This document shows, piece after piece, positions 38,867 to 55,392 of a stretch of DNA of 64,000 nt. Below the pieces are notes generated by a model. That model was given only the letters and a program-made list of their open reading frames with translations, made no database searches and was not told the DNA's origin. The DNA is from Nostoc sp. DedSLP01. GTDB taxonomy: Bacteria; Cyanobacteriota; Cyanobacteriia; Cyanobacteriales; Nostocaceae. A program made the translations under genes and the position numbers. The stretch is taken from positions 32,001 through 96,000 of the forward strand of contig JAVRCJ020000022.1 of the NCBI GenBank assembly GCA_034530875.2. Reading direction: 5' to 3'. Every line of letters begins with the position of its first letter. The first letter of the stretch is position 1.

Positions 38867-39976
38867 TCAGAATTTTTTCGCCAGCACTTCCTGAGGAGTA
38901 ATTTCGGCGTACTGTTGTGGAGTTAGAAAACCATCTCTAACATTTACCTTCTTAGGTATCAGTCCCAAATCATACCACTTATCGGCTACTTGCTGTTGCT
39001 TTTTGATCATTTGCTCGTTAATCGGTACTAATGCAAAATCATATTTTTTGTGCATGATTTCTAACGTAGGTGTATCCAGTTGAGTAGCTGAAGCGAGTAA
39101 TTGGGCTATTTCTTGAGGATGGGTTTTTGACCAATTTTGTGCTTTATTTAGTTCTTCTAAAAAAACCTTAATAACTTCTCGGTTTTCTTCATAGAACTTG
39201 CGATTAGTAGAGTAAAAGTTGTTAGTATCCCGCAACCCATTTCCACCATCTGTTAGGATACGCCCTGTTTGATTTTGAATATTTCTAGTAACAAATGGCT
39301 CCCAAATAAACCAAGCATCTACCTTACCTTGGCTAAATGCCACATTTGCATCTGGTGGTGGTAAATAAACTGACTCTACATCGCTGAGTTTTAAACCTTC
39401 TTTTTCTAAAGCTCTAACTAGAAGATAGTGACCAATTGATGCTTTTTGAAAAGCAACTTTTTTACCTTTCAAATCTTTGACGCTTTGAATCGGAGAGTTC
39501 TTTGGAACTAACAGCGAAACTGCTTTACCATCGCTAGAATTAGCAGCTAAATATACTAGAGGCGCGCCAGCTGCTTGAGAGAAAACCGGAGGTGACTCAG
39601 CTGTAGAAGCAATATCAAGTGCGCCTGCATTTAAGGCTTCTAATTGCTGAGGTCCGGCAGCAAATTCTGGCCACTCTACCCTGTAACCTAGAGGTTTTAA
39701 TCGTTCTGCTAAAATTCCTTTTTGTTCTAAAACAGCTAGGGCTGTAAGTTGTTTAGAACGAACAATTCTCACTACTTTTTCACTAGTAGTACTACTAGCT
39801 ACATTCGATGTCGATGAAGTTGTTTGTTCCTGAGTATTATTTCTTGCAGGGCTGCAACTAAACAGCGTCGTAGACAATACTACGCTATAGCCAAAAGCAA
39901 ATAAAGCATGGCGGCGAGTGATGCGTAGGCGGTTCCAAGATGCAAATCTATTTTTCATTTTTCGCACTAATGACAT
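38867..39976 (-). CDS. ssuA: Aliphatic sulfonate ABC transporter substrate-binding lipoprotein (SsuA family)
   Basis: Lipobox LFSC, EFAAGPQQLEALNAGALD, DLKGKKVA, VDAWFIWEPF, QQQVAD....GLIPKKV. Confidence 0.85.
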   Translation of the reverse strand: MSLVRKMKNRFASWNRLRITRRHALFAFGYSVVLSTTLFSCSPARNNTQEQTTSSTSNVASSTTSEKVVRIVRSKQLTALAVLEQKGILAERLKPLGYRVEWPEFAAGPQQLEALNAGALDIASTAESPPVFSQAAGAPLVYLAANSSDGKAVSLLVPKNSPIQSVKDLKGKKVAFQKASIGHYLLVRALEKEGLKLSDVESVYLPPPDANVAFSQGKVDAWFIWEPFVTRNIQNQTGRILTDGGNGLRDTNNFYSTNRKFYEENREVIKVFLEELNKAQNWSKTHPQEIAQLLASATQLDTPTLEIMHKKYDFALVPINEQMIKKQQQVADKWYDLGLIPKKVNVRDGFLTPQQYAEITPQEVLAKKF

Positions 39977-40276: not shown

Positions 40277-41464
40277 TTACGAATATTGCGTAACTAAAGG
40301 TAATTCTTGATTAAGTACCCAATTGCCAATATCACGCAATTTATAATCTACAGGATCGTGGAGAGTGAATGTACGCAAATCTCGCCAGTAACGGTCAAAG
40401 CCGTATTTAGTCGCTGTAGAACGAGTTCCGGTTGCTTCAAAAAGACCAGTAGTAATATCCAAACCAACACGAGAAGCAAAAGCTTTGGCTGCAAAAACAG
40501 AAATTGCTACTTCTCCCCTTTCTTGAGTTGTGAGGTTAGTTTCTTTTTTCCATACTTGTTGCACTTGGAGGCTAACTTTGTCAGCTAAACTAATTGCTGC
40601 TTGCAATTGCGTCCACAAGTTTCCATAGTGATGCAAAATATATGGGTCTTGAGTGGCACTATTAACACCAGATGTAATCCAAGGTTTTGTCTGAGTAATA
40701 GTGTATTGCCTTGCAGCTGCTAATGCTCCTTCAGCAATTCCCAAATAAATATAAGTTTTCGTTAATTGGGCGATGATTCCCAAAAATGTGCTAAAAGCAC
40801 CATCAGGAGGATGAGGATATCCCAAAATTTCATCTTTTTTTACCAAAACATCGTAAAAAGTGAATGTATCGCTATCTGTGCGTCTTTGTCCGATATTGTC
40901 CCAGTCTTGGTTAGAAGCAATACCAGACCTATCTTTAGGAATTATAAATATTAAGGGTACTTCTACATTATCTTGAAGAGCTGAGAATACACGGTAATCT
41001 GCAATGGCAACACCCGTGCCGAAACTTTTGCTACCATGAACGCGAAAATGTTCGCCCTCTGGACTAATTTTCAGCCTCGTATCTCTGGTGTTGATGGCAT
41101 TAGCCCAAAATAAGTTTTTCTCGGCAGTCTCTCGATAATATCTTTCTTTTTGCTCTAGCGTTCCGGAAACATGAGCTAAGGCACTTAAGTTAAGATGGTT
41201 GCCATACAACTGTCCGATGGAACCGTCTGCTTTTGAAAGTTCTTGGACTATTTTTAAAGCTTCTGCCCAAGTCGCACCTATACCACCGTACTCTTTTGGT
41301 ACAACCAAAGATAGCAAACCAGTTTCTTTCAATCGTTGGATTTCTATATCTGGTAACCCTGCTTTGTTATCTCTTTCAACTGCGGTGGCTGTCAGTTCCG
41401 TAGATAAAGAAGCAGCAACATTAATCCAGTTTTTAGATTCTGCTTCAACCAATAGTTGCACCAT
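40277..41464 (-). CDS. SfnB/DszC-like flavin-dependent monooxygenase (acyl-CoA dehydrogenase fold, sulfur acquisition)
   Basis: VPKEYGG.G, ADGSIGQL, DWDNIGQRRTDS, DPYILHHYG, FDRYWRDLRTFTLHDPVDYK. Confidence 0.88.
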   Translation of the reverse strand: MVQLLVEAESKNWINVAASLSTELTATAVERDNKAGLPDIEIQRLKETGLLSLVVPKEYGGIGATWAEALKIVQELSKADGSIGQLYGNHLNLSALAHVSGTLEQKERYYRETAEKNLFWANAINTRDTRLKISPEGEHFRVHGSKSFGTGVAIADYRVFSALQDNVEVPLIFIIPKDRSGIASNQDWDNIGQRRTDSDTFTFYDVLVKKDEILGYPHPPDGAFSTFLGIIAQLTKTYIYLGIAEGALAAARQYTITQTKPWITSGVNSATQDPYILHHYGNLWTQLQAAISLADKVSLQVQQVWKKETNLTTQERGEVAISVFAAKAFASRVGLDITTGLFEATGTRSTATKYGFDRYWRDLRTFTLHDPVDYKLRDIGNWVLNQELPLVTQYS

Positions 41465-41672: not shown

Positions 41673-41700
41673 CTACTGTAAATCGGTAGTATTTAAGTAG
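41673..41700. promoter_or_regulatory. CTAC-N20-GTAG operator-like box 1 (upstream of the monooxygenase-ssuA unit)
   Basis: CTACTGTAAATCGGTAGTATTTAAGTAG; a minus-strand -10 TATACT (41708-41713) lies 7 nt upstream. Confidence 0.7.
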
Positions 41701-42258
41701 ATTCGATAGTATAGAAGTTTTGCATAGTTCACTATAAAAGGCAAGTTTTTTTTGTGAAACAAATCAACAAATGCAATATTACTTAACTAAGTTATGAAAT
41801 CTTGATATAGGGTAATTATAAGAAAATATACTCATTGACTCTGGAAAATTAATTAACTGTTTATTAATAGATATAACTGAAAGCCTTACTGAGTAATCAT
41901 TTCATTTATAATAGATGAGTTGATGAGAGTATTGCTTTTGTTAACTATGCTCTGTGTGGGAAGATGGACAAATCGGGCACATCGTAGGGTGTAATTTGCG
42001 ATCGCAACATTCAAATTAGGGCAAATGGATAATCTTCTCTCAGCAACACAAGAGTCTGAACCCCGAATTTATACGAATTTTAGGTACTTAGACATTTATC
42101 AAAGCATCTAAAACTAGTTGAATTTACACAATATAGATGGGTTTAGTGTGCTTAGAATTGCGAAACATTTAGCAACTATTGATTTCTCAAAAATAAAGTT
42201 TTACCTTGCTATTTAAGACAGCTAAAACATCAATTACAAAAACAGGGAAGCTATTTCT

Positions 42259-42666
42259 ATGATGATGACTGAATCTATACTCGCCGAAATCGAAGCTTGT
42301 AAAGAAATCTGCATGGAATGCCAAACCACTTGCATTGAGACTATTAAATACTCTAAGACTCAGGGTGGTAAATACATGGATATGGGTATGATGTCCATGA
42401 TGCGGGACTGTGCAGAAATGTGCATGATGTGCGTGAACATGATTAATGACGGTTCTGAGTTTATGGGAAACACTTGCAGTCTGTGCGCTCAAATTTGCGA
42501 TCGCACTGCAATGGTTTGCGAACAAATGAGCAACGATCCCACAATGATGCACTGTGCTGCTATTTGCCGTAAGTGCGCTCAACACTGCAACACGATGGGA
42601 CTCAATTCTGCTTCTTATTTCCGCAGATCGAGTTTAGTGACAGCAGATGCACTACTTGCTAACTAA
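42259..42666 (+). CDS. Four-helix-bundle copper-storage (Csp3/DUF326-like) protein
   Basis: 15 Cys in CxxxC/CxxC helical repeats (CAEMCMMC, CSLCAQIC, CAAICRKCAQHC); no signal peptide. Confidence 0.85.
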   Translation: MMMTESILAEIEACKEICMECQTTCIETIKYSKTQGGKYMDMGMMSMMRDCAEMCMMCVNMINDGSEFMGNTCSLCAQICDRTAMVCEQMSNDPTMMHCAAICRKCAQHCNTMGLNSASYFRRSSLVTADALLAN

Positions 42667-42751
42667 TTTACCCCCAAGATTGAGTTTCCTAACTCATCAC
42701 AAACTAGTCTTTCTACTTAAAACCATATCGTGCCCGACTATTTTTAGTTGT

Positions 42752-42781
42752 TCGCCACCCAGAAAGTTTTTTGGGTGGCGA
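42752..42781. terminator. Hairpin between convergent genes (probable bidirectional terminator)
   Basis: TCGCCACCCAGAAA-GT-TTTTTGGGTGGCGA. Confidence 0.7.
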
Positions 42782-42820
42782 TAAAATTAACAAAATTGTT
42801 TGGATTTCTGCAATGTAGTG

Positions 42821-43486
42821 CTAGGCAGCAACAGGAGTCGCAAATCTAGCATATCGTTCGATGTAGAATTCCTTGCTATTAGCGATCGCCACTACAGAAT
42901 CCCTTTGTTTCAAAGCCTTTTTCCACTGACGCAGACGAGTAAATTCCTCTGGTATGCCAAAGCCTCGATATTGCTTCAGCGCAGGCCAACGTTCAAACCA
43001 CGGGTAAAAGGTAAAATCAACCAAACTGATAGATTCACCAAACCAGTAAGGGCCGTCTTTTGATAACTTCGCTAAACCTTCATTTTCGATAAATTCCAAA
43101 TGTTTGTACAGTTCTTGTTTAGCTGCTTCTTGTTGTTCAATTTCAGAACTACGCAACAGAGCAGAAAAAGCTGGAACAAATCGAGTATTAGCAAAATCAA
43201 TCCAGATTCGAGCCTGCGCTTTATCAATGGAATCGCTAGGCAAAAGAGGCGGATTTGGAAATACCTCATTCAGGTATTCATTAATAATTGCCGATTCCCA
43301 AACTCGCCGACCGTTATGAACGATCGCAGGTACTTTACCATAAGGGGAAATGTTCCTAAAGCCCTCCGGTGGATTTTGTAAATTAATTTCAATTAAATCA
43401 AAGTCGATACCTTTTTCTTGCAAAACCAAGCGCGAACGATGAGCATAAGGACAAACAACCGCGCTATATATTTGAATTTCAGCCAT
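42821..43486 (-). CDS. Glutathione S-transferase, omega-like (CPY active site)
   Basis: [38 protein letters not shown]. Confidence 0.92.
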   Translation of the reverse strand: MAEIQIYSAVVCPYAHRSRLVLQEKGIDFDLIEINLQNPPEGFRNISPYGKVPAIVHNGRRVWESAIINEYLNEVFPNPPLLPSDSIDKAQARIWIDFANTRFVPAFSALLRSSEIEQQEAAKQELYKHLEFIENEGLAKLSKDGPYWFGESISLVDFTFYPWFERWPALKQYRGFGIPEEFTRLRQWKKALKQRDSVVAIANSKEFYIERYARFATPVAA

Positions 43487-43562
43487 CTTGATGTTCCTCT
43501 ATAATTTAGGATTGATTTATTAAGGAAGGCAGCAGGAAAACTGCTCTCTACCTTCTGCCTTC

Positions 43563-44687
43563 TTACAGCCAAGGCACTTCTTCAGGTGCATAACGAAACG
43601 CACGGAAGACTGAATTTTGTTCCCCACGAGCAACTGCTGATTTTTCACCAGGAAGATTCCTGACGGCAAAGTGGGGATTAACATATTCCCAAACTATTTC
43701 TCCTGTAACTGTCACCTCAAAGATGCGACCGAAAGCACCTTCTGTAATTAAAGTGTTGCCATTGGCTAGACGTTGTGCACCTGATATATAAGAACTGAAA
43801 AAATTGTGAGGTGGGGTGTCAGTGTATTCCCAAACTATTTGTTTAGTTTGGCGGTTGACTTCAATTACACGAGAAAAATTGAGCGCAGTGTGACGGCGAT
43901 GTGCGCCATTATCAAAAATTAGGATATTGCCGTTAGCTAATTCGTTGGGAAAGTGCTGTTGTGCTAGGACGTCATCTCCAAGCGTCCAGATAATTTCTCC
44001 TGTGTGGCGATCGATAATTGCGACGGTAGAAATGTTACGAAAGCTGACTATAATATTGCCGTCAGCGAGTTCGCCTACAGTATTACCATGAGTCCATTCG
44101 TGCCGTTGGTCTTGGGGAGTGATAGTAAAAATATCTGGATCTAAATGTTCGTGGGCGTGCCAAGTCCAAACAATTTCACCACCAGGAGTAACTTCATAAA
44201 GTACATCAGCATAGATATCGCCGTCTGCTTCGGTTCCTGGTATACCACCTTTAATACGGGGAATCAAAGACTGGGGTATTTTTTCAATGGCTAATAAAAT
44301 CGTGTTACCGTTACGTAGTCTGCGCCCATCGTGATGATGATATGGATGTTTGTATTCCCAAATAATATTGCCTTTGGGATCTGCTTCTAAGACTACGCCC
44401 CCTTTAAAGGCAGCCCACAATGGAAAATGTGGCGGAATATTTAAGGTTTTTCCATTATAAAAAAGGTTGCCGTTGGGTAAGAGATAACCATATAAACCTG
44501 GTGGATAAGGCAAATTCCATTGATGTACCACTTCTCCTTCTAAATTGAGAAGATATACTTCTCCGTTACCTGTAAGTGGTGCAAAAAGCGTGTAACCTTT
44601 GAATACTTTGTCAGGATTATAAGCTCTTAATCCGGTACCACGGCGACGAATGGTATTTTGATCGACTAATGCAGTTGCGATCGTCAT
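43563..44687 (-). CDS. Aryl-sulfate sulfotransferase (ASST) family beta-propeller, no signal peptide
   Basis: HHHDGRRL.NGN, EWTHGN, IVSFRN, QQH.P, IFDNG, SSYISGAQRLANGNTLITEG; likely start ATG 44687. Confidence 0.85.
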   Translation of the reverse strand: MTIATALVDQNTIRRRGTGLRAYNPDKVFKGYTLFAPLTGNGEVYLLNLEGEVVHQWNLPYPPGLYGYLLPNGNLFYNGKTLNIPPHFPLWAAFKGGVVLEADPKGNIIWEYKHPYHHHDGRRLRNGNTILLAIEKIPQSLIPRIKGGIPGTEADGDIYADVLYEVTPGGEIVWTWHAHEHLDPDIFTITPQDQRHEWTHGNTVGELADGNIIVSFRNISTVAIIDRHTGEIIWTLGDDVLAQQHFPNELANGNILIFDNGAHRRHTALNFSRVIEVNRQTKQIVWEYTDTPPHNFFSSYISGAQRLANGNTLITEGAFGRIFEVTVTGEIVWEYVNPHFAVRNLPGEKSAVARGEQNSVFRAFRYAPEEVPWL

Positions 44688-44848
44688 AATTTTAATGGAT
44701 GGGATTGGGGATTGGGGATTAGGGACTGGGGACAAGGAGAATAATTCTTTCTTGTACAGACGCGATTAATCGCGTCTCTAATTCCTCACTCAAAACTCAA
44801 CTTTCAAGACTTTTATTTTGAATTTTGAATTTTGAATTTTGAATTGAT

Positions 44849-45886
44849 TCATGGTGCTGGATTTGGATATTCAGCGTGAACAGCATCTATTTCTGCCAAG
44901 ATATCTTTATCGAGAACTACATTGATACTTTCTAGATTCTCTTTAAGTTGTTCTAATGTAGTAGCGCCAATAATCGTGCTACCAACAAACCAACGACTCC
45001 GCACAAATGCTAAAGCTAATTGTGCGGGAATTAATTGATGGCGTTTGGCAATTTCTACATAAGCAGCGACTGCTTTGGTAACATTTGGTTTTAGATAGCG
45101 TTGACCAAAGTTTTCAAACAAAGCAACTCTGGTGTTTTCTGGTTTACCGTTGAGATATTTACCAGTTAAATAGCCAAATCCTAAAGGACTATAAGCTAAT
45201 AAAGGAATGTTTTCGTAATAAACTGCTTCTGCAAGAGCGCCATCAAAAACTCGATTGAGTAAATTGTAAGAATTTTGTATGGAAACAACTTTAGGCAATC
45301 CTAATTGTTTAGCTGCTTGGCTAAATTGTACAACTCCCCAAGGTGTTTCATTACTTAAGCCAATATAGCGAATTTTTCCTGCTCTAATGACATCAGCAAA
45401 TACTTCGAGTTGTTCGGTAATGGGAACTGTCTCTTTTACTTGATAAGGGTCGAAAACTGTTTGCCCAAAACGAGGTACATAGCGGTCGGGCCAATGAATT
45501 TGATACAAATCAATATAGTCTGTTTGTAATCTTTTCAGACTATCATCTACTGCTTGTTTAATATTGTCTCGGTCAATTGCTTTTGCTCCATCACGCAGCC
45601 ATTTAAAGCCTCTACCAGGCCCCGCAATTTTAGTGGCAATTATTAATTTATCTCGCTGTTGGTGTTTTAACCATTCTCCAATGTAAGTTTCTGTTAAACC
45701 ATAGGTTTCAGCACTGACTGGTACTGGATACATTTCAGCTGCATCTATGAAATTAACTTCATTATTAGTTGCATAGTCTAGCTGTTGATGGGCTTCTTCG
45801 ATAGTATTTTGCCGCCCATAAGTCATTGTACCCAGACAAATTTCAGAAACTTCTAGGTCACTATTCCCTAATTGATTATACCGCAT
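44849..45886 (-). CDS. NADP(H)-dependent aldo/keto reductase (Tas-like)
   Basis: VSEICLGTMTYG, FIDAAEMYP, SLKRLQTDYIDLYQIHWPDR, LAYSPLG; start ATG 45886. Confidence 0.92.
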   Translation of the reverse strand: MRYNQLGNSDLEVSEICLGTMTYGRQNTIEEAHQQLDYATNNEVNFIDAAEMYPVPVSAETYGLTETYIGEWLKHQQRDKLIIATKIAGPGRGFKWLRDGAKAIDRDNIKQAVDDSLKRLQTDYIDLYQIHWPDRYVPRFGQTVFDPYQVKETVPITEQLEVFADVIRAGKIRYIGLSNETPWGVVQFSQAAKQLGLPKVVSIQNSYNLLNRVFDGALAEAVYYENIPLLAYSPLGFGYLTGKYLNGKPENTRVALFENFGQRYLKPNVTKAVAAYVEIAKRHQLIPAQLALAFVRSRWFVGSTIIGATTLEQLKENLESINVVLDKDILAEIDAVHAEYPNPAP

Positions 45887-45977
45887 ATTTTGGGATAATT
45901 TTATTATTCGTTTGACAATTTTTATTGTTGAGTTTTTATTACTCAATAAGGAACCGATTAGAATTATTTGAATAATA

Positions 45978-46005
45978 CTACGGTATGTCTATCAAATTAA
46001 GTGAC
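45978..46005. promoter_or_regulatory. Operator-like box 2 (divergent AKR / 2OG-oxygenase promoter region)
   Basis: CTACGGTATGTCTATCAAATTAAGTGAC; the left half matches box 3, the right half is degenerate. Confidence 0.55.
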
Positions 46006-46139
46006 TTAAGATAAAGTTTACAATTGTATGTAAATCAACCTCGATTTTATATAGTTGATGGGTAGTAGCGATCGCCATAACTAAAATTCTAGTTATCGAT
46101 ATAATTTTCTGTATACCTTAGCGATAAAAGAATCTAATT

Positions 46140-47159
46140 ATGACAGTCTTACAAGCTATAGACAAAAAGTTTTCACAAGTACCTGTTATTGATATTAGTA
46201 CGTTGATTTACCAAACTAATAACTCTTGCGATCTAATTGCCGACCAAATCAGACAAGCGTGCCAAGATTACGGTTTCTTCTATATTATTGGTCATGGAGT
46301 TAACGAACAATTACAAGAGCAGTTAGAAAATCTCAGTCAAGAATTCTTCGCCCAGGATATAGAAACTAAACTGAAAATTCGTATGGCTCTTGGTGGTAGA
46401 GCATGGCGAGGATATTTCCCTGTTGGCAACGAATTAACATCAGGTAAACCTGATTTAAAAGAAGGCATTTACTTTGGTACAGAATTAGAAGAAAACCATC
46501 CTTTAGTGCAAGCTGGTACACCAATGCACGGCAGCAATCTTTTTCCATCTAATATTCCCCAATTTAGGGAAACAGTACTTGAGTATATAGAAGCAATGAC
46601 TAAACTCGGACACACCTTGATGTCTGGTATCGCTTTAAGTTTGGGATTAGAAAAGTCTTACTTTGCAGACCGTTATACAAAAGACCCATTGATATTATTT
46701 CGGATTTTCAATTATCCTCCTAATTCATCATTATCTAAATCTGAATGGGGTGTTGGCGAACATACTGATTATGGAGTCTTGACTATCCTCAAGCAAGATA
46801 ATATCGGGGGATTACAAGTCAAATCAAAGTCTGGTTGGATAGATGCGCCTCCTATTCCTAACTCCTTTGTTTGCAACATTGGAGATATGCTCGATCGCAT
46901 GACAAGAGGATTGTATCGCTCAACGCCCCACCGCGTTAAAAACCTATCAACAAGTAATCGCCTATCATTTCCCTTCTTCTTTGACCCCAATTTCAACGTT
47001 GAAGTCAAACCCATTGAACTAAATGACGTAGTAGTGAATGACGATCGAAGCGATCGCTGGGATAAAGCCAGCGTCCACGAATTTAGCGGCACTTATGGCG
47101 ACTATCTCTTAAATAAAGTCTCCAAAGTCTTCCCAGAACTACGTCAAACAGTACTTTAG
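46140..47159 (+). CDS. 2-oxoglutarate/Fe(II) oxygenase, isopenicillin N synthase family
   Basis: VPVIDIS, GFFYIIGHGV, HTDYG (HxD), STPHRV, RLSFPFF. Confidence 0.92.
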   Translation: MTVLQAIDKKFSQVPVIDISTLIYQTNNSCDLIADQIRQACQDYGFFYIIGHGVNEQLQEQLENLSQEFFAQDIETKLKIRMALGGRAWRGYFPVGNELTSGKPDLKEGIYFGTELEENHPLVQAGTPMHGSNLFPSNIPQFRETVLEYIEAMTKLGHTLMSGIALSLGLEKSYFADRYTKDPLILFRIFNYPPNSSLSKSEWGVGEHTDYGVLTILKQDNIGGLQVKSKSGWIDAPPIPNSFVCNIGDMLDRMTRGLYRSTPHRVKNLSTSNRLSFPFFFDPNFNVEVKPIELNDVVVNDDRSDRWDKASVHEFSGTYGDYLLNKVSKVFPELRQTVL

Positions 47160-47237
47160 AGTTCTGAGTGAGACGCGATTAATCGCATCTGTACAAGAAT
47201 TATTCTCCTTGCCCCCCTGCCTCTTGCCTCCTGCCTC

Positions 47238-48461
47238 CTAATAAACAGATGTCAACAACTTATCTATCGCTGCTCGAAACGCTGTTGCTGCACCAGCACT
47301 CATATCACGAGGAGCGCAGATGCGATTTCTCAGATAAGCAAAAGTAATAGCCCCCACAGCAGCGAAGATAGAATCAACACTGCTATTTTTACCACCAGTG
47401 CGACCGCCCGATAAACTCTCGCCATTGCCATGAATGAGATAATCAGCCAGTTGTCGCAAGTGAAAATCAACAGCTTCCTTAACTGTGGTAAAGTCGCCAT
47501 CTGCTGCTAATGCTTGGACTCCAGAGTTTTTGATAATATCTGCGATCGCAACTTCTCGATTATCGCTCAATCTCTCAGCTGCTTCTGCTCGAAATTCAAT
47601 GTTCTGACTATGTGCTGCATCCAAAGCTAAGGGATTTCCAGTCGGTTCGACACCCCATCTGCGACGTAACAGTAAATTGTTAGTAACATTATCCGACTTT
47701 ACCCGATGATAAGCGGGGCGATCGTTGAGTGCTTCAAACCAAGCATTGATACGAGGATAGCGAGGATTTCCTTTCAGGTGATATCCCCGATATACAGGTA
47801 AATTAGCCGCCAATCTATCCAGATGGGGACTATACATAGCATCTACCAAGCTAAACGTACTTACAAAGTAGGGGCCTGGATATTTAGCCAAAACTTGTTC
47901 GAGTTCGTCCAACTTGGCCTCAAATGCTGTTTGTAAATTTGCCAACTCATCAGCATCTAGAGATGGTTCTCTAAGGTATTTGTAAGCAATCTCTTTAAAA
48001 CCGTTAGTTTCAGCCTCTTCAACCAACTGTCTAGCAATAGCATTCTCCTCTGGATCTTGCGGTAACAATGGAGGATCGGGAAACCTTTCTTCTAAAGCTA
48101 AGAGAATATCTTTGGATTCATATACTAACTTTCCGTCAATTTTTGCAGCCGGGACAAGGGCTGTCGGAACTAGGTCAGTGTACCATTTGGGTTTATTACT
48201 TAAATCGATAAACTCCGTTGCAAAGGGAATTTGCTTTTCTTCTAAAGCAAACCAAACTCGCTCGCAAAAAGGACACCAGGAATTAGTATCTCGATAAAGC
48301 AAGACTAGTGGTTGTGTATTTGGCGGAAGTTTATCTAAACTGCTGGGAATTGGTGCAGTAGAAGGAGATTGTCCCGGCCTCTTTACCCTACGCGCAGAGG
48401 TATTTTTTCTCGCAGTTTCTAAAAGTTCTTCCCAACTCGATACTGTGTTTTGAATAGACAT
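47238..48461 (-). CDS. Long GST-family protein with CPFC motif and C-terminal extension
   Basis: LYRDTNSWCPFCERVW, KPKWY, VYESKDIL, FSLVD, RICAPRDMS. Confidence 0.85.
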   Translation of the reverse strand: MSIQNTVSSWEELLETARKNTSARRVKRPGQSPSTAPIPSSLDKLPPNTQPLVLLYRDTNSWCPFCERVWFALEEKQIPFATEFIDLSNKPKWYTDLVPTALVPAAKIDGKLVYESKDILLALEERFPDPPLLPQDPEENAIARQLVEEAETNGFKEIAYKYLREPSLDADELANLQTAFEAKLDELEQVLAKYPGPYFVSTFSLVDAMYSPHLDRLAANLPVYRGYHLKGNPRYPRINAWFEALNDRPAYHRVKSDNVTNNLLLRRRWGVEPTGNPLALDAAHSQNIEFRAEAAERLSDNREVAIADIIKNSGVQALAADGDFTTVKEAVDFHLRQLADYLIHGNGESLSGGRTGGKNSSVDSIFAAVGAITFAYLRNRICAPRDMSAGAATAFRAAIDKLLTSVY

Positions 48462-48464
48462 TTG

Positions 48465-49121
48465 CTACCTCGCTCTATTAGGAACGCCAGAAAACACAAA
48501 TAACTGTTGCTCTTTGGGTTGAGGTAAATTTTCACCAAGGTAACGATGAATACCTACTCCCATATCTCCTGTAGCCGTAAGTTTGAAGTTAACTTCTTCA
48601 AATCCAGATTTACTGAAAATTCTCCGCACATTATCAGAGTGTGGAATACCCTGAGAGTGTCCGCGAGTCCAGAGGACGAAAGTACCAGGTTTACTCAGAA
48701 AGCTCAAGTTATCAAGTAAGCGACTCAATTCTCCTTCATCAGGTAGATTACCAAAAACACCGCAGGCGATCGCAATATCTGCCGGAACTGCACCTATATA
48801 GTTACTAGAAAGAGTTGCATCACCATTGATAAACTCAATTTGCTTGCTCAAACCCAATGATTCTATAGTTGCTCGTCCCCGTTCAACTAAATCTGGATTT
48901 ATTTCAACCAGTCGTGCGCGAACATCTTTCGCCCGGTGGTGATTTTTTAAAACCCCTAGTAAATCTCGCCCATCACCCGCACAAACACTCACTATTCTGA
49001 TAGTTCCATCTGGCGACGCATTCAAGCTATAAGCAATATATTCCCGCACGATTTCTAGACGCTGCTGCAATTTTGGCTCAGTGTTGTAGAGGTCGTGCCA
49101 TTCATACCAATCTTTTGGCAT
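48465..49121 (-). CDS. Class I SAM-dependent methyltransferase
   Basis: KDWYEWH, IVSVCAGDGRDLLG, LVEINP, FINGDA; likely start ATG 49121. Confidence 0.8.
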   Translation of the reverse strand: MPKDWYEWHDLYNTEPKLQQRLEIVREYIAYSLNASPDGTIRIVSVCAGDGRDLLGVLKNHHRAKDVRARLVEINPDLVERGRATIESLGLSKQIEFINGDATLSSNYIGAVPADIAIACGVFGNLPDEGELSRLLDNLSFLSKPGTFVLWTRGHSQGIPHSDNVRRIFSKSGFEEVNFKLTATGDMGVGIHRYLGENLPQPKEQQLFVFSGVPNRAR

Positions 49122-49162
49122 AAGGGGTGATTCCCATTTGATGCACACTGTTTATTTACAAA

Positions 49163-49190
49163 CTACGGTTAGTTTATCAATTAAATGTAG
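49163..49190. promoter_or_regulatory. Operator-like box 3 (upstream of the methyltransferase-GST unit)
   Basis: CTACGGTTAGTTTATCAATTAAATGTAG, an exact CTAC-N20-GTAG. Confidence 0.7.
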
Positions 49191-49568
49191 TTTATGAATC
49201 AGAGGTAGAGTATCACAGATATTCATCTAAAATCAAGCCTGATTCGGTGCGATCGCCATTAAGCAGTATTTATACGGTTATTGTTGTATAACAATAATTA
49301 GCCCTTTAGCCCTCGGTTGAGACTGTAAAATTAAAGTTAAAGTTATCTTTTAGCCTTAGAAGCTAAGTTCTCGTAAAATTTTTTCTAGAGCAGCGCCTTA
49401 AGGTGTATTTGATATCCCTGTACATCTCAGTAGGCAAAATTTTGACAATTAATCAGCTTTACAAGCAACCTTCGATCCGTATTCTTCACATTTTAGTTTC
49501 ATAAAAATTAACTGTAGATTAGGACAGTATCAGTACAACCTATACTTGGCGTAAAGGAGAAGTATACT

Positions 49569-50024
49569 ATGCTGTCAGATGTAATACGTCAAAAACAAAT
49601 AATTGAAAAAACTGTTCGTAAGATTTGTGAAGGAATAAATGCTGGAATTTGGCGGTTTAGCTTACAGTCTTTTGATAATGTAGATTCTGGCGATGTTTAC
49701 GAGATTTATGGTATTGAGGGTAAAGCTCTTTGCCAGGAGTATGAAGTAAGTCTTGGTTTTGAGTCCAAGCGTTCACTGAAAGATATTGAAGATCTAGAAT
49801 CTTACAAGTGGTATTTTTCATCTAACCTTAAGCAATCAAATCGAGCAGATCCCTTTGCGTTCAAAGGTGAGCTTGATGGAGTAGCAATTCAGTATGGTAG
49901 ACATCGCCCAGAAGAAAAAGAAATTTTGGAATTAGTCAGAGATTCCATTAGTCTTCTTCAAGAATCTCAAATTACTTTTGACTTGCAAGATATAGATAAT
50001 ACAGTGTGTGTACATTGCCATTAA
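49569..50024 (+). CDS. Hypothetical protein
   Basis: 151-aa ORF with an AAGGAG RBS. Confidence 0.65.
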   Translation: MLSDVIRQKQIIEKTVRKICEGINAGIWRFSLQSFDNVDSGDVYEIYGIEGKALCQEYEVSLGFESKRSLKDIEDLESYKWYFSSNLKQSNRADPFAFKGELDGVAIQYGRHRPEEKEILELVRDSISLLQESQITFDLQDIDNTVCVHCH

Positions 50025-50070
50025 ATGTAACTGAAGAGCTAAAAACACTTTAACTGTATATATCCGAATA

Positions 50071-50400
50071 TTACCTAGCAACAACTCTTGTTCGAGCTTG
50101 TGAGTGAGATTGAGGTTTAGCTGTCACTACAATCTCTACATCTTGACCCAACGCATTCAGGAAGCGAAACAACCGCACGGTAGAAAAGCCTGATAATTTT
50201 CCATTCGTCAAAGCAGATATTTTTGGTCGATCGATTCCTAAAAGTTCTGCTGCTTGAGCCTGCGTCATTTGTTGCATACTAATAATATTGCTAATCTTAC
50301 GTGCAAGTTCAGCTTTCACTAGCAATTCATCAGAGTTCTCTAAATCCAAATCGGCAAATATATTACCGCTACTAGCTTTTATTTTAATTTCTTCACTCAT
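50071..50400 (-). CDS. XRE/HTH_37 antitoxin (HigA-like)
   Basis: SSGNIFADLDL, KAEL, MTQAQAAELLGIDRPKISAL, FS..RL.RFLNALG.DVEI. Confidence 0.9.
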   Translation of the reverse strand: MSEEIKIKASSGNIFADLDLENSDELLVKAELARKISNIISMQQMTQAQAAELLGIDRPKISALTNGKLSGFSTVRLFRFLNALGQDVEIVVTAKPQSHSQARTRVVAR

Positions 50401-50780
50401 TCTGGCTCCCCCTGCTGCTGGCTATAGTTTTCTTTGTAATGCTCTTTTGCTCGCTTAAGTCTTTTTTCAATCAGATCGATATCTTGCTTTGGTGTAGCTA
50501 GACCGTGCTTTGATTTCTTTTGAAAAGCGTGTAAAACATAAATTACACCCGCAAGCTTTACAGTATAAACGGCTCGATAAGTATCTCCATCAAAGTCTTC
50601 TACAACTTCCAGCACTCCAGCACCTTTAAATCCTTTGAGTAGCTTAGCTGAGGGATGTTTCTCACCAGATTGAGCTAAGTACAGAGCATAACCCATAACT
50701 TGCCGTACTTCCTCTGGGAATTCTTTCAAATCCTCAAGCGAACTTCCAACCTACTCAACTAGTTTCAACGATAAACTCAT
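50397..50780 (-). pseudogene. RelE/HigB (Gp49-like) toxin with a premature TAG at codon 10
   Basis: ATG 50780 reads MSLSLKLVE*VGSSLEDLKEFPEEVRQ...YRAVY...IYVLHAFQKKS. The TAG (50751-50753) sits at the usually conserved Trp of W.GSS. Confidence 0.85.
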
Positions 50781-51114
50781 ACTTGAAGTATGCTAGTTTT
50801 GGCATATTACTGTCAATATTCTGCGTACTTCTAGGAAGAATTGGTGTAGGCTTAAAGATTTTAAAATTTTCCTACTAATCATCTTACACTGCCTCAATTT
50901 ACTTATGTATTAAATAAAACTGAGTAAATTACATCTAAACCCTTGAATTTACAATTTATCGACATTAATTTCAGTATAATTTACAGCCAGACATACAGTT
51001 GCTATAATATTTAGTTATTCTAAATATTTGTAATTAATAAATTTAGGTAAGCATATATTTTATTTGCGAAAGACTTGAATTTTATTTAGTGGCGTGCAAT
51101 ACTGGTAAATTAAT

Positions 51115-51142
51115 CACCGTTAAATCGGTCAATAATTAGTAT
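51115..51142. promoter_or_regulatory. Operator-like box 4 (upstream of the flavoprotein)
   Basis: CACCGTTAAATCGGTCAATAATTAGTAT; shares the TAAATCGGT core with box 1 in the same register. Confidence 0.6.
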
Positions 51143-51399
51143 TTTTCAAAAAACGTCTGTATTAGCTTAAAGAATAAGCATTTCAGTTCATCTTCAACTG
51201 ATGCATAGATTGATGCATAGATGAATTTGGCAAATCATGTGTATGGTCTTAAAAAGATTCCTGTCTATCGATTTCAGGAGTGAGAACTAGTGAAAGATTA
51301 GCAAATTTGCAATTCCTAAAAGTTTTTCTACAAGCTCCCTCGGATTCTTGGGGAAGCTTTACCCTTCCCCTTTTTCTTATTTTTAAAGGAGTAAATTTC

Positions 51400-53013
51400 A
51401 TGAATAGTCCTATCCCTCAAGATTCTTCTCATCTAGATTTAGTAACTGATGTATTAATTATTGGCGGCGGCCCGTCTGGTACTTGGGCTGCTTGGAGTGC
51501 AGCAAGTAATGGGGCAAAAGTCGTTCTAGTGGACAAAGGTTACTGCGGTACAAGTGGTGCAGCAGCGGCCTCTGGAAATGGCGTATGGTATATTCCACCA
51601 GACCCAGAACAACGGGAAGCAGCAATGGCAAGCCGGGAAGCGATGGGAGGCTTTCTTGCAGACCGCCACTGGATGACTAGGGTATTAGATAGGACATACG
51701 ACAACATTAACTCCCTTGCGGATGAGGGGTATCGTTTCAGCGTTGATGCTAATGGCAAGGTCATTCGTCGTTCCTTGCAAGGGCCGGAATATATGCGGTT
51801 CATGCGGAAAAAGATTAAGCAAGCAGGAGTGAAAATCTTAGACCACAGCCCTGCTTTAGAGTTGTTGGTGGATGCAGAAGGTGCTGTGGCTGGTGCTAAG
51901 GGTATCAATCGTCAATCTGGGGAACGGTGGAGAGTTCGAGCCGGGGCAGTTGTGATTGCTACAGGTGGTTGTGCTTTCTTAAGTAAGGCTCTTGGTTGTA
52001 ATGTCCTTACAGGCGATGGTCTGTTGATGGCAGCGGAGGCCGGTGCTGATTTTTCTGGTATGGAATTTTCTAATGCTTACGCAATTGCTCCAGCTTTTTC
52101 CTCTGTTACCAAGACTCGTTATTATGAATGGGCTTCTTTCACTTATGAAGATGGCACGGTAATTGAGGGTGCAGGTTCTAAGCGCGGTCGTTCTATAATT
52201 GCCAAAACATTGCTGACTCAGCCAGTTTATGCGTGTCTCGACCAAAATATGGATGAGGAAACAAAAGCTTGGATGCGGGGATCTCAGCCTAACTTCTTTA
52301 TTGCTTTCGATCGCGCTGGTATTGACCCCTTCACTCAAAGATTCCCGATAACTTTACGTTTGGAAGGAACTGTACGCGGTACTGGTGGTATTCGGATTGC
52401 AGACTACACCTGTGCTAGTTCAGTGAATGGACTCTATGCCGCGGGAGATGCAGCGACAAGAGAGTTAATCTGTGGTGGCTTTACAGGTGGTGGTAGCCAT
52501 AATGCAGCCTGGGCAATGTCTTCTGGCTACTGGTCTGGACAATCTGCTGCTAACTATGCCTTGAGTTTAGGAGAACGAGCAAACCAGCGTAGCGTCCAAG
52601 GAGTTGGTGAAGCGGGATTGTATGGGGAAGGTAATAAGAGATTTTCACCCGATGACGCGATCGCTGCAACTCAAGCCGAAGTTTTCCCTTACGACCGCAA
52701 CCTCTTCCGCAGTGCTGCTGGGTTAAGCGCATCCTTAGATAGACTAAATCACCTCTGGCAAGAAATCCGCCATAGCCACACACCAAATGATAGCCAAATT
52801 GTGCGATCGCGGGAAGTTGCAGCGATGGTTGCTACTGCTCGTTGGATGTACAACAGCGGTTTGCAACGTCAGGAAACTAGAGGTATGCACAAGCGCGTCG
52901 ATTTCCCACAACAAGACCCTAACCAGCAATATCGGCTCCTCAGTGGTGGATTAGATAAGATTTGGGTGAAACCTGAGTTAGTTGTTAGCGGTCGAGAATT
53001 AGTCACAGCGTGA
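51400..53013 (+). CDS. Fumarate reductase/APS reductase-like flavoprotein (AsfA-like)
   Basis: DVLIIGGGPSG, VDKGYCGTSG, VVIATGG, TGDG, GLYAAGD, RQETRGMH.R.DFP; AAGGAG RBS before ATG 51400. Confidence 0.85.
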   Translation: MNSPIPQDSSHLDLVTDVLIIGGGPSGTWAAWSAASNGAKVVLVDKGYCGTSGAAAASGNGVWYIPPDPEQREAAMASREAMGGFLADRHWMTRVLDRTYDNINSLADEGYRFSVDANGKVIRRSLQGPEYMRFMRKKIKQAGVKILDHSPALELLVDAEGAVAGAKGINRQSGERWRVRAGAVVIATGGCAFLSKALGCNVLTGDGLLMAAEAGADFSGMEFSNAYAIAPAFSSVTKTRYYEWASFTYEDGTVIEGAGSKRGRSIIAKTLLTQPVYACLDQNMDEETKAWMRGSQPNFFIAFDRAGIDPFTQRFPITLRLEGTVRGTGGIRIADYTCASSVNGLYAAGDAATRELICGGFTGGGSHNAAWAMSSGYWSGQSAANYALSLGERANQRSVQGVGEAGLYGEGNKRFSPDDAIAATQAEVFPYDRNLFRSAAGLSASLDRLNHLWQEIRHSHTPNDSQIVRSREVAAMVATARWMYNSGLQRQETRGMHKRVDFPQQDPNQQYRLLSGGLDKIWVKPELVVSGRELVTA

Positions 53014-53035
53014 TAATTGCAAACTCAAGACTATT

Positions 53036-53362
53036 TCAGAATTGATTTAGTGTTTGTTCGTACAAAGCTCCATGTGCCTCGCTGTCTACCAACACTCCAT
53101 CACAGTCGAAATTTACCAGTTGTGTTTCTAGTTTACTTATTTCTTTAACAGCTTCTTCATTAATATCATCCATTGATTCATAGGTCTCATAAGGGTGTGA
53201 GCCTTGAGCAATTACCCGATGGCTATGAATGCTGACTTGACTGGAAAAAGCAGAGTGAAAGTCAGGCTCAAATGTGGTGTTACCTGCTGGTAATAGCAAG
53301 CCCAGGCGGATATGCCTATGGGAGTCAGCTTTAGAGTACATCTGAATCTCTGTTGTTGACAA
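53036..53362 (-). pseudogene. Chimeric remnant: maleate isomerase/Asp-Glu racemase N-terminus fused to a HAD hydrolase start
   Basis: RLGLLLPAGNTTFEPDF...SIHSHRV followed by LVNFDCDGVLVDSE and an early stop. Confidence 0.65.
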
Positions 53363-53439
53363 GCCTAATTATATCTAGATATTTAGTTACCCTAATAATT
53401 AGGTATACATATTTTCAGATAGCCTGTATAATGTTTAAA

Positions 53440-53467
53440 CTACGATAAATCGACCGATAAAGTGTAA
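53440..53467. promoter_or_regulatory. Operator-like box 5 (upstream of the GST-dioxygenase unit)
   Basis: CTACGATAAATCGACCGATAAAGTGTAA; a perfect -10 TATAAT (53427-53432) lies 7 nt upstream. Confidence 0.7.
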
Positions 53468-53608: not shown

Positions 53609-54280
53609 ATGAGCAACGTACAACTTTACTTCGCCAAAGGTTCTACCTTCTCACAACGCACTCGTGTAGTCTTACTAGAAAAAGGTATTGACTTCACCCC
53701 GATAGAAATTGACTTACAGAATCTACCAGATGGGTACAGGCAGATTTCACGGTATGGAAAGGTTCCAGCTATCAAACATGGAGATGTTCAACTTTACGAA
53801 TCTGCCATTATCAATGAATATCTAGATGAGGTTTTTCCAGAACCATCATTGTTACCCCACGATCCTGCAAGCAAAGCGATCGCTCGTATCTGGATAGACT
53901 ACGCCAATACTCGGTTTGTCCCGGCTTTTAACAAATTCCTCCGTGGTAAAGATAGCCAAGAACACGAACAGGGTAAAAAAGAGTTTACAGAAGCACTTTT
54001 ATATCTCGAACAAGAAGGATTCGGCAAAAGTGATTACTTGTTAGGAGATAGTTTTAGTCTAGTTGATATCAGCTTTTATCCTTGGTTTGAACGTTTACCA
54101 CTATTAGAACACTTCCGTAAGTTCGCGCTACCAGCAGAAACACCTCGTTTGCAGACATGGTGGAATCTGGTGCGCGATCGCTCCTCAGTTCAACAAGTAG
54201 CAAATCCTGTGGACTTCTATTTAGAAAGATTCGCTAAAATCCTTGGCGAACCGATTGCTATTGGTGCAGGGCAAAAGTAG
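53609..54280 (+). CDS. Glutathione S-transferase (Ser-type paralogue of 42821-43486)
   Basis: [53 protein letters not shown]. Confidence 0.92.
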
Positions 54281-54477: not shown

Positions 54478-55392
54478 GTGACTTCCCAATACTTTGATAT
54501 CAAACCAATTGCCGGACGTATCGGTGCAAAAATCATTGGTGTTGACCTCAGCAAGAATCTTAGCGATGAAATTATCAGCGATATCCGTAAAGCTCTAGTT
54601 CAATACAAAGTTATCTTCTTCCGCGAACAGAACCTTGACGATAAAGCACAAGTAGCCTTCGCCCGTCGCTTCGGAGAAGTCACTACAGCTCATCCTACCG
54701 TCCCTTCATTGCCAGAAAACCCAGCAGTTCTTGACCTGAATTACGGTAAAACTGTCAGTCGTGCCAATAACTGGCACACCGATGTCACATTTGTAGACCG
54801 TCCTCCTCTTGGTTCTGTTTTACGGGCGCTGGTTATCCCGCCATCAGGAGGCGATACCGTTTGGGCAAACTCGGTGACTGCATACGAAGATTTACCAACT
54901 CATCTGCGTAATCTTGCTAACGAACTTTGGGCAATACACAGCAACGCCTACGATTATGCAGCAGCAGCGGTTGATTTACCAAAACAAGTTTTAGAGTATC
55001 GAGCTGTTTTCACCTCAACTGTATACGAAACTCTGCATCCAGTTGTTCGCGTCCATCCTGAATCGGGCGAACGTGGTTTATTTATTGGTGGTTTCGTGCG
55101 TCGTTTGCGTGGTTTATCACAAAATGAATCTGATGAAATCTTGAAATTGTTGCAAGCTTACATCACACGCCCAGAAAATACCGTCCGGTGGCGTTGGAAA
55201 GTTGGCGATGTAGCTTTCTGGGATAATCGCGCTACTCAACATTATGCGATCGCTGACTACGGCAATCAACCTCGTCACGTCCAGCGAGTCACCATTGTTG
55301 GCGACATTCCCGTTGGTATTGATGGTAAACAAAGTCAAGCCATCAAGGGAGATTCCTCTGCATATAACCGACGCGAACCCGCTTTAGTATAG
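54478..55392 (+). CDS. TauD/TfdA family 2OG dioxygenase, AtsK (alkylsulfatase)-like
   Basis: RANNWHTDVTF, GGDTVWAN, LWAIHSNAYDY, HPVVRVHPESGE, WDNRATQHYA; GTG start with AGGAG RBS. Confidence 0.9.
   Translation: MTSQYFDIKPIAGRIGAKIIGVDLSKNLSDEIISDIRKALVQYKVIFFREQNLDDKAQVAFARRFGEVTTAHPTVPSLPENPAVLDLNYGKTVSRANNWHTDVTFVDRPPLGSVLRALVIPPSGGDTVWANSVTAYEDLPTHLRNLANELWAIHSNAYDYAAAAVDLPKQVLEYRAVFTSTVYETLHPVVRVHPESGERGLFIGGFVRRLRGLSQNESDEILKLLQAYITRPENTVRWRWKVGDVAFWDNRATQHYAIADYGNQPRHVQRVTIVGDIPVGIDGKQSQAIKGDSSAYNRREPALV

Follow-up and report, generated by a model that had tools for sequence, protein, structure and literature searches.

Five palindromic sites in an organosulfur gene cluster

The DNA analyzed here, a window of 64,000 nucleotides (nt) from the genome of Nostoc sp. 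DedSLP01 (contig JAVRCJ020000022.1, positions 32,001 to 96,000 of the forward strand), harbors an organosulfur-scavenging gene cluster which encodes SsuA, a monooxygenase, an arylsulfotransferase, an aldo-keto reductase, glutathione S-transferases (GSTs), a dioxygenase, a flavin adenine dinucleotide (FAD) oxidoreductase and TauD. An earlier note on this sequence had described five 28-mers, starting at positions 41673, 45978, 49163, 51115 and 53440 of the window, as a recurrent CTAC-N20-GTAG motif ahead of transcription units. All five were found at these positions and all are intergenic. The recurrent element holds, whereas the literal pattern is matched by only two of the five sites (41673 and 49163). 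Judged from sequence comparisons, the element is a 28-bp palindrome and quite probably the operator of CymR-like Rrf2 repressors, which are encoded outside the window and would control about 30 promoter regions, mostly of organosulfur scavenging and cysteine synthesis.

A 28-bp palindrome beyond chance

A matrix was seeded with the five window sites and iterated over the 8.57-Mb genome. The consensus, (A/C)TACGGTAAATYGATCRATTTACCGTA(G/T), is a full palindrome with A/T-rich flanks; the converged palindrome, CTACGGTAAATCGATCGATTTACCGTAG, is flanked by TAAA and TTTA, and its C4 and G25 are invariant in the 29 training sites. Self-complementarity reached 0.59 on the even 28-bp axis, compared with 0.23-0.35 on 12 shifted axes (33 sites). 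The information is spread over the whole palindrome, not over the CTAC/GTAG ends alone.

At ≥18 bits, 33 sites were identified in the genome, 31 of which are noncoding according to the open reading frame (ORF) calls; noncoding DNA makes up 21% of the genome. One of the two "coding" sites lies in an over-extended start, the other in a repeat-rich, probably spurious ORF. At ≥20 bits the refined matrix gave 28 noncoding matches and 1 "coding" match, while 20 column-shuffled palindromic matrices gave 0-2 noncoding matches at this threshold and 0-5 at ≥18 bits. Matrices trained without the window (on 25 outside sites, or on 31 boxes upstream of sbp in other genomes) place the five sites on ranks 1-5 within the window, with the next-best site at 4.6 or 7.7 bits. 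The sbp-trained matrix, which is not fully independent because its 31 training boxes were chosen using the first matrix, yields 0, 0, 0, 3 and 7 of 1,783,674 reversed noncoding positions that reach the five scores. The 28-bp palindrome is real and beyond chance. Occurrence at background frequency, which the earlier note had named as the finding that would speak against its motif, was not observed, as the shuffled-matrix and reversed-sequence controls stay far below the real matrix.

The view that the boxes arise by chance in AT-rich DNA, or represent a dispersed repeat with no role in regulation, could draw on the literal CTAC-N20-GTAG pattern, which is common (110 genome matches, just 4 of them among the high-scoring sites) and was rejected as the motif, and on the approximately one third of the strong sites that precede genes without an evident sulfur role. 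It is, however, largely refuted and its probability negligible, given the two controls, the sulfur targets in distant families and the conserved position of the box in diverged orthologous promoters. For site 49163, a box of ≥12 bits occurs at a conserved position in 18 of 25 orthologous loci, in which the flanks diverge. Site 45978 is the weakest of the five, and its orthologous promoters carry a box of ≥16 bits, stronger than the window copy, in 7 of 19 loci.

Promoter geometry

In the earlier note, -10 hexamers at boxes 1 and 5 (TATACT, 41708-41713, minus strand; TATAAT, 53427-53432, plus strand) were taken as a sign of repression. Read on the strand of the gene, the distance from the end of each hexamer to the box is exactly 7 nt, and repression is still implied; a larger number of sites fits a TTGnnn-17-extended -10 arrangement whose end is 9-18 bp ahead of the box. 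Of 40 sites, 17 showed the pattern TTG-N16-18-TG-NN-A-NNN-T in this range in gene orientation and 3 in the reverse orientation, as did 32 of 6193 background slots (0.5%); the pattern was derived from the same 40 sites and the orientations were set by hand. A generic sigma-70 score over the same sites showed no sharp peak. At site 49163, the -35, the extended -10 and the box are visibly co-conserved across genera in the orthologous promoters. As the box lies just downstream of the predicted promoter, it would cover the first 30-40 transcribed bases, as with a repressor. We infer that both geometries mean repression.

Genes of the cluster and neighboring features

The features of the window and the genes of the candidate regulators are listed in Table 1. 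Two genes behind a box have paralogs elsewhere in the genome that also carry a box of their own: the aldo-keto reductase on contig C27 (25.3 bits) and the FAD oxidoreductase on contig C79, which heads a unit with a ferredoxin and an SsuA-like protein.

Table 1. Boxes, predicted promoters and genes discussed in the text. Positions refer to the 64,000-nt window, except where a C number gives the contig of the same genome (G000).
Feature	Position	Strand	Remarks
SsuA-family aliphatic sulfonate binding protein	38867..39976	-	TIGR01728 above cut-off
DszC/SfnB-like flavin monooxygenase	40277..41464	-	under both equivalog cut-offs
Operator box 1, 22.9 bits	41673..41700		209 bp upstream of the DszC/SfnB-like monooxygenase + ssuA unit (-)
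Candidate -10 TATACT of the earlier note	41708..41713	-	7 nt before box 1
Alternative predicted promoter TTGCCT-N17-(TGC)AAAACT	41716..41744	-	inferred; ends 15 nt before box 1
Glutathione S-transferase	42821..43486	-
Arylsulfotransferase (ASST)	43563..44735	-
Tas-like aldo-keto reductase	44849..45946	-	heads predicted unit with arylsulfotransferase and GST genes
Operator box 2, 11.9 bits, decayed	45978..46005		between the divergent aldo-keto reductase unit and 2OG-Fe(II) dioxygenase
2-oxoglutarate (2OG)-Fe(II) dioxygenase (DIOX_N)	46140..47159	+	upstream box ≥16 bits in 7/19 loci of the gene
GST-domain protein	47238..48461	-
Putative S-adenosylmethionine methyltransferase (Methyltransf_20)	48465..49148	-
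Operator box 3, 27.6 bits	49163..49190		before the methyltransferase-GST unit
Predicted promoter TTGATT-N18-(TGA)TACTCT	49207..49236	-	inferred; ends 16 nt before box 3
Predicted promoter TTGAAT-N17-(TGC)AATACT	51075..51103	+	inferred; ends 11 nt before box 4
Operator box 4, 19.6 bits	51115..51142		before the FAD oxidoreductase
FAD-dependent oxidoreductase (SdhA/NadB/AprA superfamily)	51280..53013	+
Predicted promoter TATACA-N17-TATAAT	53404..53432	+	inferred; ends 7 nt before box 5
Operator box 5, 24.5 bits	53440..53467		before the GST-TauD unit
Glutathione S-transferase	53609..54280	+
TauD-family taurine/sulfonate dioxygenase	54478..55392	+
MYYI-tailed Rrf2, between cysE and cysK	C19:76925-77392
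MYYI-tailed Rrf2 paralog	C1:408635-409078
MYYI-tailed Rrf2 paralog	C19:68225-68659
Tail-less Rrf2	C4:143344-143817
Crp-family gene beside cysE	C19:75138-75728 (L005:15139-15729)	-	own 25-bit box

Three further features lie between these genes. A Cys- and Met-rich protein of 135 aa without a Pfam match is encoded at 42259-42666 (+), in the midst of the sulfur genes and 558 bp away from box 1; by eye it resembles the four-helix-bundle copper-binding protein adjoining cysK on plasmid pANL. Between boxes 3 and 4, the cluster is split by a Gp49-like/HTH_37 toxin-antitoxin-like pair and an ORF of unknown function (49569-50729). A 108-aa ORF without a family match (53036-53362, -), divergent from box 5, looks like what is left of a truncated or chimeric gene. 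To the right of the window, the organosulfur island runs on for about 35 kb (C22:96000-131047) with eight more boxes of >15 bits; this part contains several ssuA copies, ssuCB, a porin, an NtaA-type monooxygenase and amidohydrolases.

Predicted regulon

By a hand tally of the targets, at least 18 of the 33 sites with ≥18 bits precede clear sulfur units. These include ssuA (several), ssuD, an sfnG-like gene, tauD, the DszC/SfnB-like monooxygenase, porin-ssuCB, cysE/rrf2-cysK, an aminotransferase-CBS-cystathionine lyase unit, tauE and the linked Crp gene. The remaining strong sites precede oxidoreductases, hydrolases, transport-related genes or nothing identifiable. Of the 6189 ORFs in the genome, just 60 (1%) lie within 650 bp of a 12-bit box. 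In other families, 35 of 37 box-adjacent genes are annotated; they encode cysK-type enzymes, PAPS reductase, sulfate-binding proteins, rhodaneses, TauD, luciferase-like monooxygenases and SsuA-type binding proteins, and some box neighbors there are unrelated to sulfur or unannotated.

Some strong boxes stand apart from this set. One of 18.4 bits (C17:30346, L021) is located 538 bp upstream of a flavodoxin ATG, with a divergent 100-aa ORF 186 bp away; control of the flavodoxin by this box, if true, would suggest Fe-S sparing under sulfur shortage. Three boxes of 25.6-30.3 bits (C83:6544, C16:152377 and C36:47042) have no clear downstream gene and possibly belong to small proteins or non-coding RNAs, or are sites orphaned by insertion elements.

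CymR-like Rrf2 proteins as candidate repressors

According to the earlier note, the box would be bound by a dimeric repressor that responds to sulfur status, belongs to the Rrf2 family and has its gene outside the window. Such candidates are indeed present: the genome contains four Rrf2 genes, three of which encode proteins ending in MYYI, while the fourth is tail-less. Two of the three MYYI-tailed genes directly precede cysK, and the one at C19:76925 also faces cysE. Two boxes are located in this divergent cysE/rrf2-cysK region, at C19:76893 (25.5 bits, with the rrf2 start 4 bp further on) and at 76799. Of 80 close Nostoc loci, 75 retain the cysE/rrf2 box, 71 of them at one offset, and so do most other loci of the same family. 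Together with the enrichment of ssu, tau and cys genes among the targets and the co-occurrence of the box with CymR-like Rrf2 across genomes, described below, these findings argue for an Rrf2 protein as the reader of the box.

Identity as Rrf2 winged-helix proteins is indicated by PF02082 and TIGR00738, both above cut-off. The Rrf2 of this genome is up to 95% identical to proteins in named Nostoc records. The M, the Y and the last I of the C-terminal M-Y-x-I do not vary among the CymR-like proteins aligned (32 of 32). No Cys is invariant in alignments of 20 and 32 such sequences; the C19:76925 protein has one Cys and B-type paralogs have 1-5. In IscR, three conserved Cys ligate a [2Fe-2S] cluster. 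Since this triad is absent, the proteins are CymR-like rather than IscR-like, and of the label "CymR/IscR-like" in the earlier note only the first half is kept; the IscR model TIGR02010 gave 66-73 bits against a cut-off of 207.55, and the IscR label was rejected. The best solved relatives are 4CIC (E 9e-21; IscR of Thermincola potens) and B. subtilis CymR (2Y75). 4CIC shares the MYYI tail and a similar YLEQ helix, but unlike 4CIC and E. coli IscR the cyanobacterial proteins have no invariant cysteine, and no isc or suf genes were seen among the annotated box targets. In a tree built from 21 Rrf2 rows, support was obtained for an A-type clade (95/93) and not for most other forks. The recognition helices predicted for the three MYYI paralogs are similar, and the same box is probably read by all of them.

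Distribution of box and regulator in the phylum

We compared 201 genomes of the phylum, in which full-length CymR-like matches (E < 1e-25) separate from distant tail-less ones. A fixed IUPAC pattern of the box gave a clear excess over the control in the family of the window's genome, with a mean of about 10 matches in 18 genomes with the A-type paralog and about 3 in 8 without it (controls 0-4). As this pattern was too insensitive outside the family, the DNA upstream of sbp was scored with a matrix from the window's genome only (≥12 bits, ≤650 bp). The sbp gene was sought in 80 of the 201 genomes and was present in 70; upstream DNA was scored for 59 of these and for the window's genome, though not for every sbp copy. 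Among genomes with a CymR-like Rrf2, 35 of 44 had an sbp box; of the 16 without, none did, the best match there having 2.3 bits. By type, it occurs in 17 of 19 genomes with an A-type paralog, in 18 of 25 with the B type only and in 0 of 16 with neither. The 16 genomes without CymR-like Rrf2 come from six families and one order.

These genomes also bear on a regulator of the Crp family (CysR type; C19:75138-75728 or a paralog), which we consider an unlikely reader of the box. In S. elongatus, control of sulfate transport and of pANL genes is reported to lie with CysR (PMC11420160). Furthermore, the Crp gene has its own box, and three tested genomes of one genus (g32, see below) without a CymR-like protein, two of them with boxes, have a Crp ortholog. 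However, an sbp box is present in 11 of 30 genomes without a Crp ortholog, all 11 of which have a CymR-like Rrf2 (hand tally); four of them (G002, G062, G086 and G123) have no Crp match better than 1e-25, and the three g32 genomes with a Crp ortholog have no sbp box. A 28-bp site downstream of the -10 is also unlike Crp sites, which have about 22 bp and usually lie upstream.

Observations against CymR-like Rrf2 as the reader

Several observations weigh against the assignment of the box to CymR-like Rrf2 repressors. In the window's genome, no box was found before sat, sir, cysH and ssuE. The genome-wide enrichment which the earlier note had expected is present for ssu and cysK, while cysA and two of the three sbp copies have weak boxes only (11.3, 13.8 and 10.9 bits). 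In the other genomes, the sbp box was not seen in 9 of the 44 with a CymR-like Rrf2 (not every sbp copy was scored), and because the compared genomes are related, the counts are not independent events and the statistics are inflated. The NCBIfam model for CymR (NF047409) gave 90.7, 110.3 and 106.9 bits against a cut-off of 195, and the CymR equivalog label was rejected; the model does not single out the MYYI proteins, since the tail-less Rrf2 scores 99 bits. The CymR site of B. subtilis cysK, the one site scored, has -33 bits or lower on the cyanobacterial matrix. As the profile cut-off is missed and the operator sequence differs, the system is filed as a CymR-like variant and not as CymR. No box was detected within 300 bp upstream of the widespread B/C-type rrf2 genes (0 of 22 loci), and strong boxes occur in genomes with the B type alone, while the box in the own promoter is found for the A type only.

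Finally, boxes occur in genus g32, which has no CymR-like Rrf2 (16 of 17 genomes have only distant tail-less Rrf2, one has none). Here, boxes of 14.8-26.0 bits precede organosulfur genes in 5 of 17 loci (one best match per genome), with 26.0 bits in G187 (L193) and G201 (L186), 24.1 bits in G137 and G207 (L192, L195) and 14.8 bits in G212 (L200). As the genome-wide box counts of g32 equal the control (185 vs 168), these boxes are read as orphan operators, which probably lie in acquired islands. They would also be explained, as would the box-less B-type rrf2-cysK loci, if the box had another reader, e.g. the tail-less Rrf2 or some other factor, and the CymR-like genes were mere members of the regulon. 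The tail-less Rrf2, however, occurs in most of the 16 genomes with box-less sbp promoters, and among the regulator families screened, which were not all, no other regulator gene was found to track the box; we regard another reader as rather improbable.

Proposed mechanism

By analogy to CymR of Bacillus and Staphylococcus, the CymR-like Rrf2 proteins would sense cysteine through CysK. In S. aureus, the CymR tail YMFYI, the terminal Ile of which is strictly conserved, binds the CysK active site, and a decapeptide has a KD of 25 nM (bioRxiv 10.1101/2024.09.19.614015). The CymR-CysK complex represses at low O-acetylserine (PMC13689551, PMC9338935). Under sulfur-replete conditions, the Rrf2 tail would thus dock in the CysK active site of Nostoc, and the complex would bind the box just past the start site and block transcription. 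When sulfur runs short, O-acetylserine would push the tail out, and repression of the regulon would be lifted. For the paralog at C19:76925, the predicted targets of repression are cysK, cysE and its own gene. A predicted complex of Rrf2 and CysK had a score of 0.27 (mark 0.32), which speaks neither for nor against docking.

The CymR-like protein might instead bind the box but activate, or sense thiol redox via its own cysteines without CysK. The latter would be in line with the cysteines of the B-type paralogs and with S. aureus CymR, which also senses oxidation via one Cys (PMC13689551). Both variants are very unlikely, as no Cys is invariant whereas the tail is, and the box lies downstream of the predicted -10.

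The Crp-family protein encoded beside cysE ends in W-x-Y-x-I, which is invariant in 22 of 22 aligned orthologs and absent from the C6 Crp paralog and from the Crp between two sbp genes in L273. It is a candidate for a second CysK-docking tail. CysK could then be a three-way hub for CysE (tail GAGI), Rrf2 (MYYI) and Crp (W-x-Y-x-I), encoded in one operator-controlled locus, with Crp docking as well in a repressor-to-activator cascade read out by O-acetylserine; part of the credit given to CysR would then belong to Rrf2 derepression. We offer this extension tentatively and consider it doubtful.

Comparison with known systems

The proposed regulation resembles CymR-CysK of B. subtilis and S. aureus (NF047409; PDB 2Y75, 3T8R) in the Rrf2 protein without an Fe-S Cys triad and with an M-x-Y-I-type tail, in the linkage to cysK and cysE, in the regulon of cysteine synthesis and sulfur-source uptake (here deduced from the boxes) and in the long palindromic operator at the promoter. 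In contrast, the cyanobacterial system has up to three paralogs per genome, all below the CymR cut-off, a different operator of 28 bp with even symmetry and a regulon dominated by genes for sulfonate, sulfone and sulfate-ester scavenging, GSTs and a Crp regulator.

The CysR (Crp) regulon of S. elongatus PCC 7942 overlaps in its targets (sbp, sulfate ABC genes and the sulfur-regulated region of pANL), but CysR belongs to another protein family and the box tracks Rrf2 better than Crp. In the iModulon paper on S. elongatus, the CysR regulon's structure is called undefined (PMC11420160); the words "motif" and "Rrf2" are absent from its main text. On pANL, an Rrf2 protein ending in SRMFYI is encoded (L320, NC_004073:31585-32081) in the region described there as sulfur-regulated. 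The best matrix match of the plasmid (11.7 bits) lies 34 bp upstream of this rrf2 gene. Weaker matches (about 5-6 bits) precede a carbonic anhydrase-catalase unit and a DUF4242-ABC unit, and an equally scoring one at 44700 is in a coding region.

A network analysis of Rrf2 proteins contains a large cyanobacterial cluster without conserved Cys and His (PMC9218516), which may or may not correspond to the CymR-like proteins described here. In a study on sulfur starvation in Synechocystis (PMC2491639), the words motif and CysR are absent. The literature on CymR, Rrf2 or IscR in combination with cyanobacteria and sulfur, as far as accessible and with most subscription papers and the per-taxon regulons of RegPrecise outside its scope, held no description of the box or its regulator. 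The mechanism type (CymR-CysK) is already known, which limits the surprise.

Implications

The operator, the candidate repressor and the sensing mechanism are now directly testable. The boxes point to a likely sulfur role for many unannotated genes, such as GSTs, the aldo-keto reductase, the methyltransferase and FAD oxidoreductases. If the proposed regulation is true, control by the moonlighting CymR-CysK pair would extend from Firmicutes to cyanobacteria.

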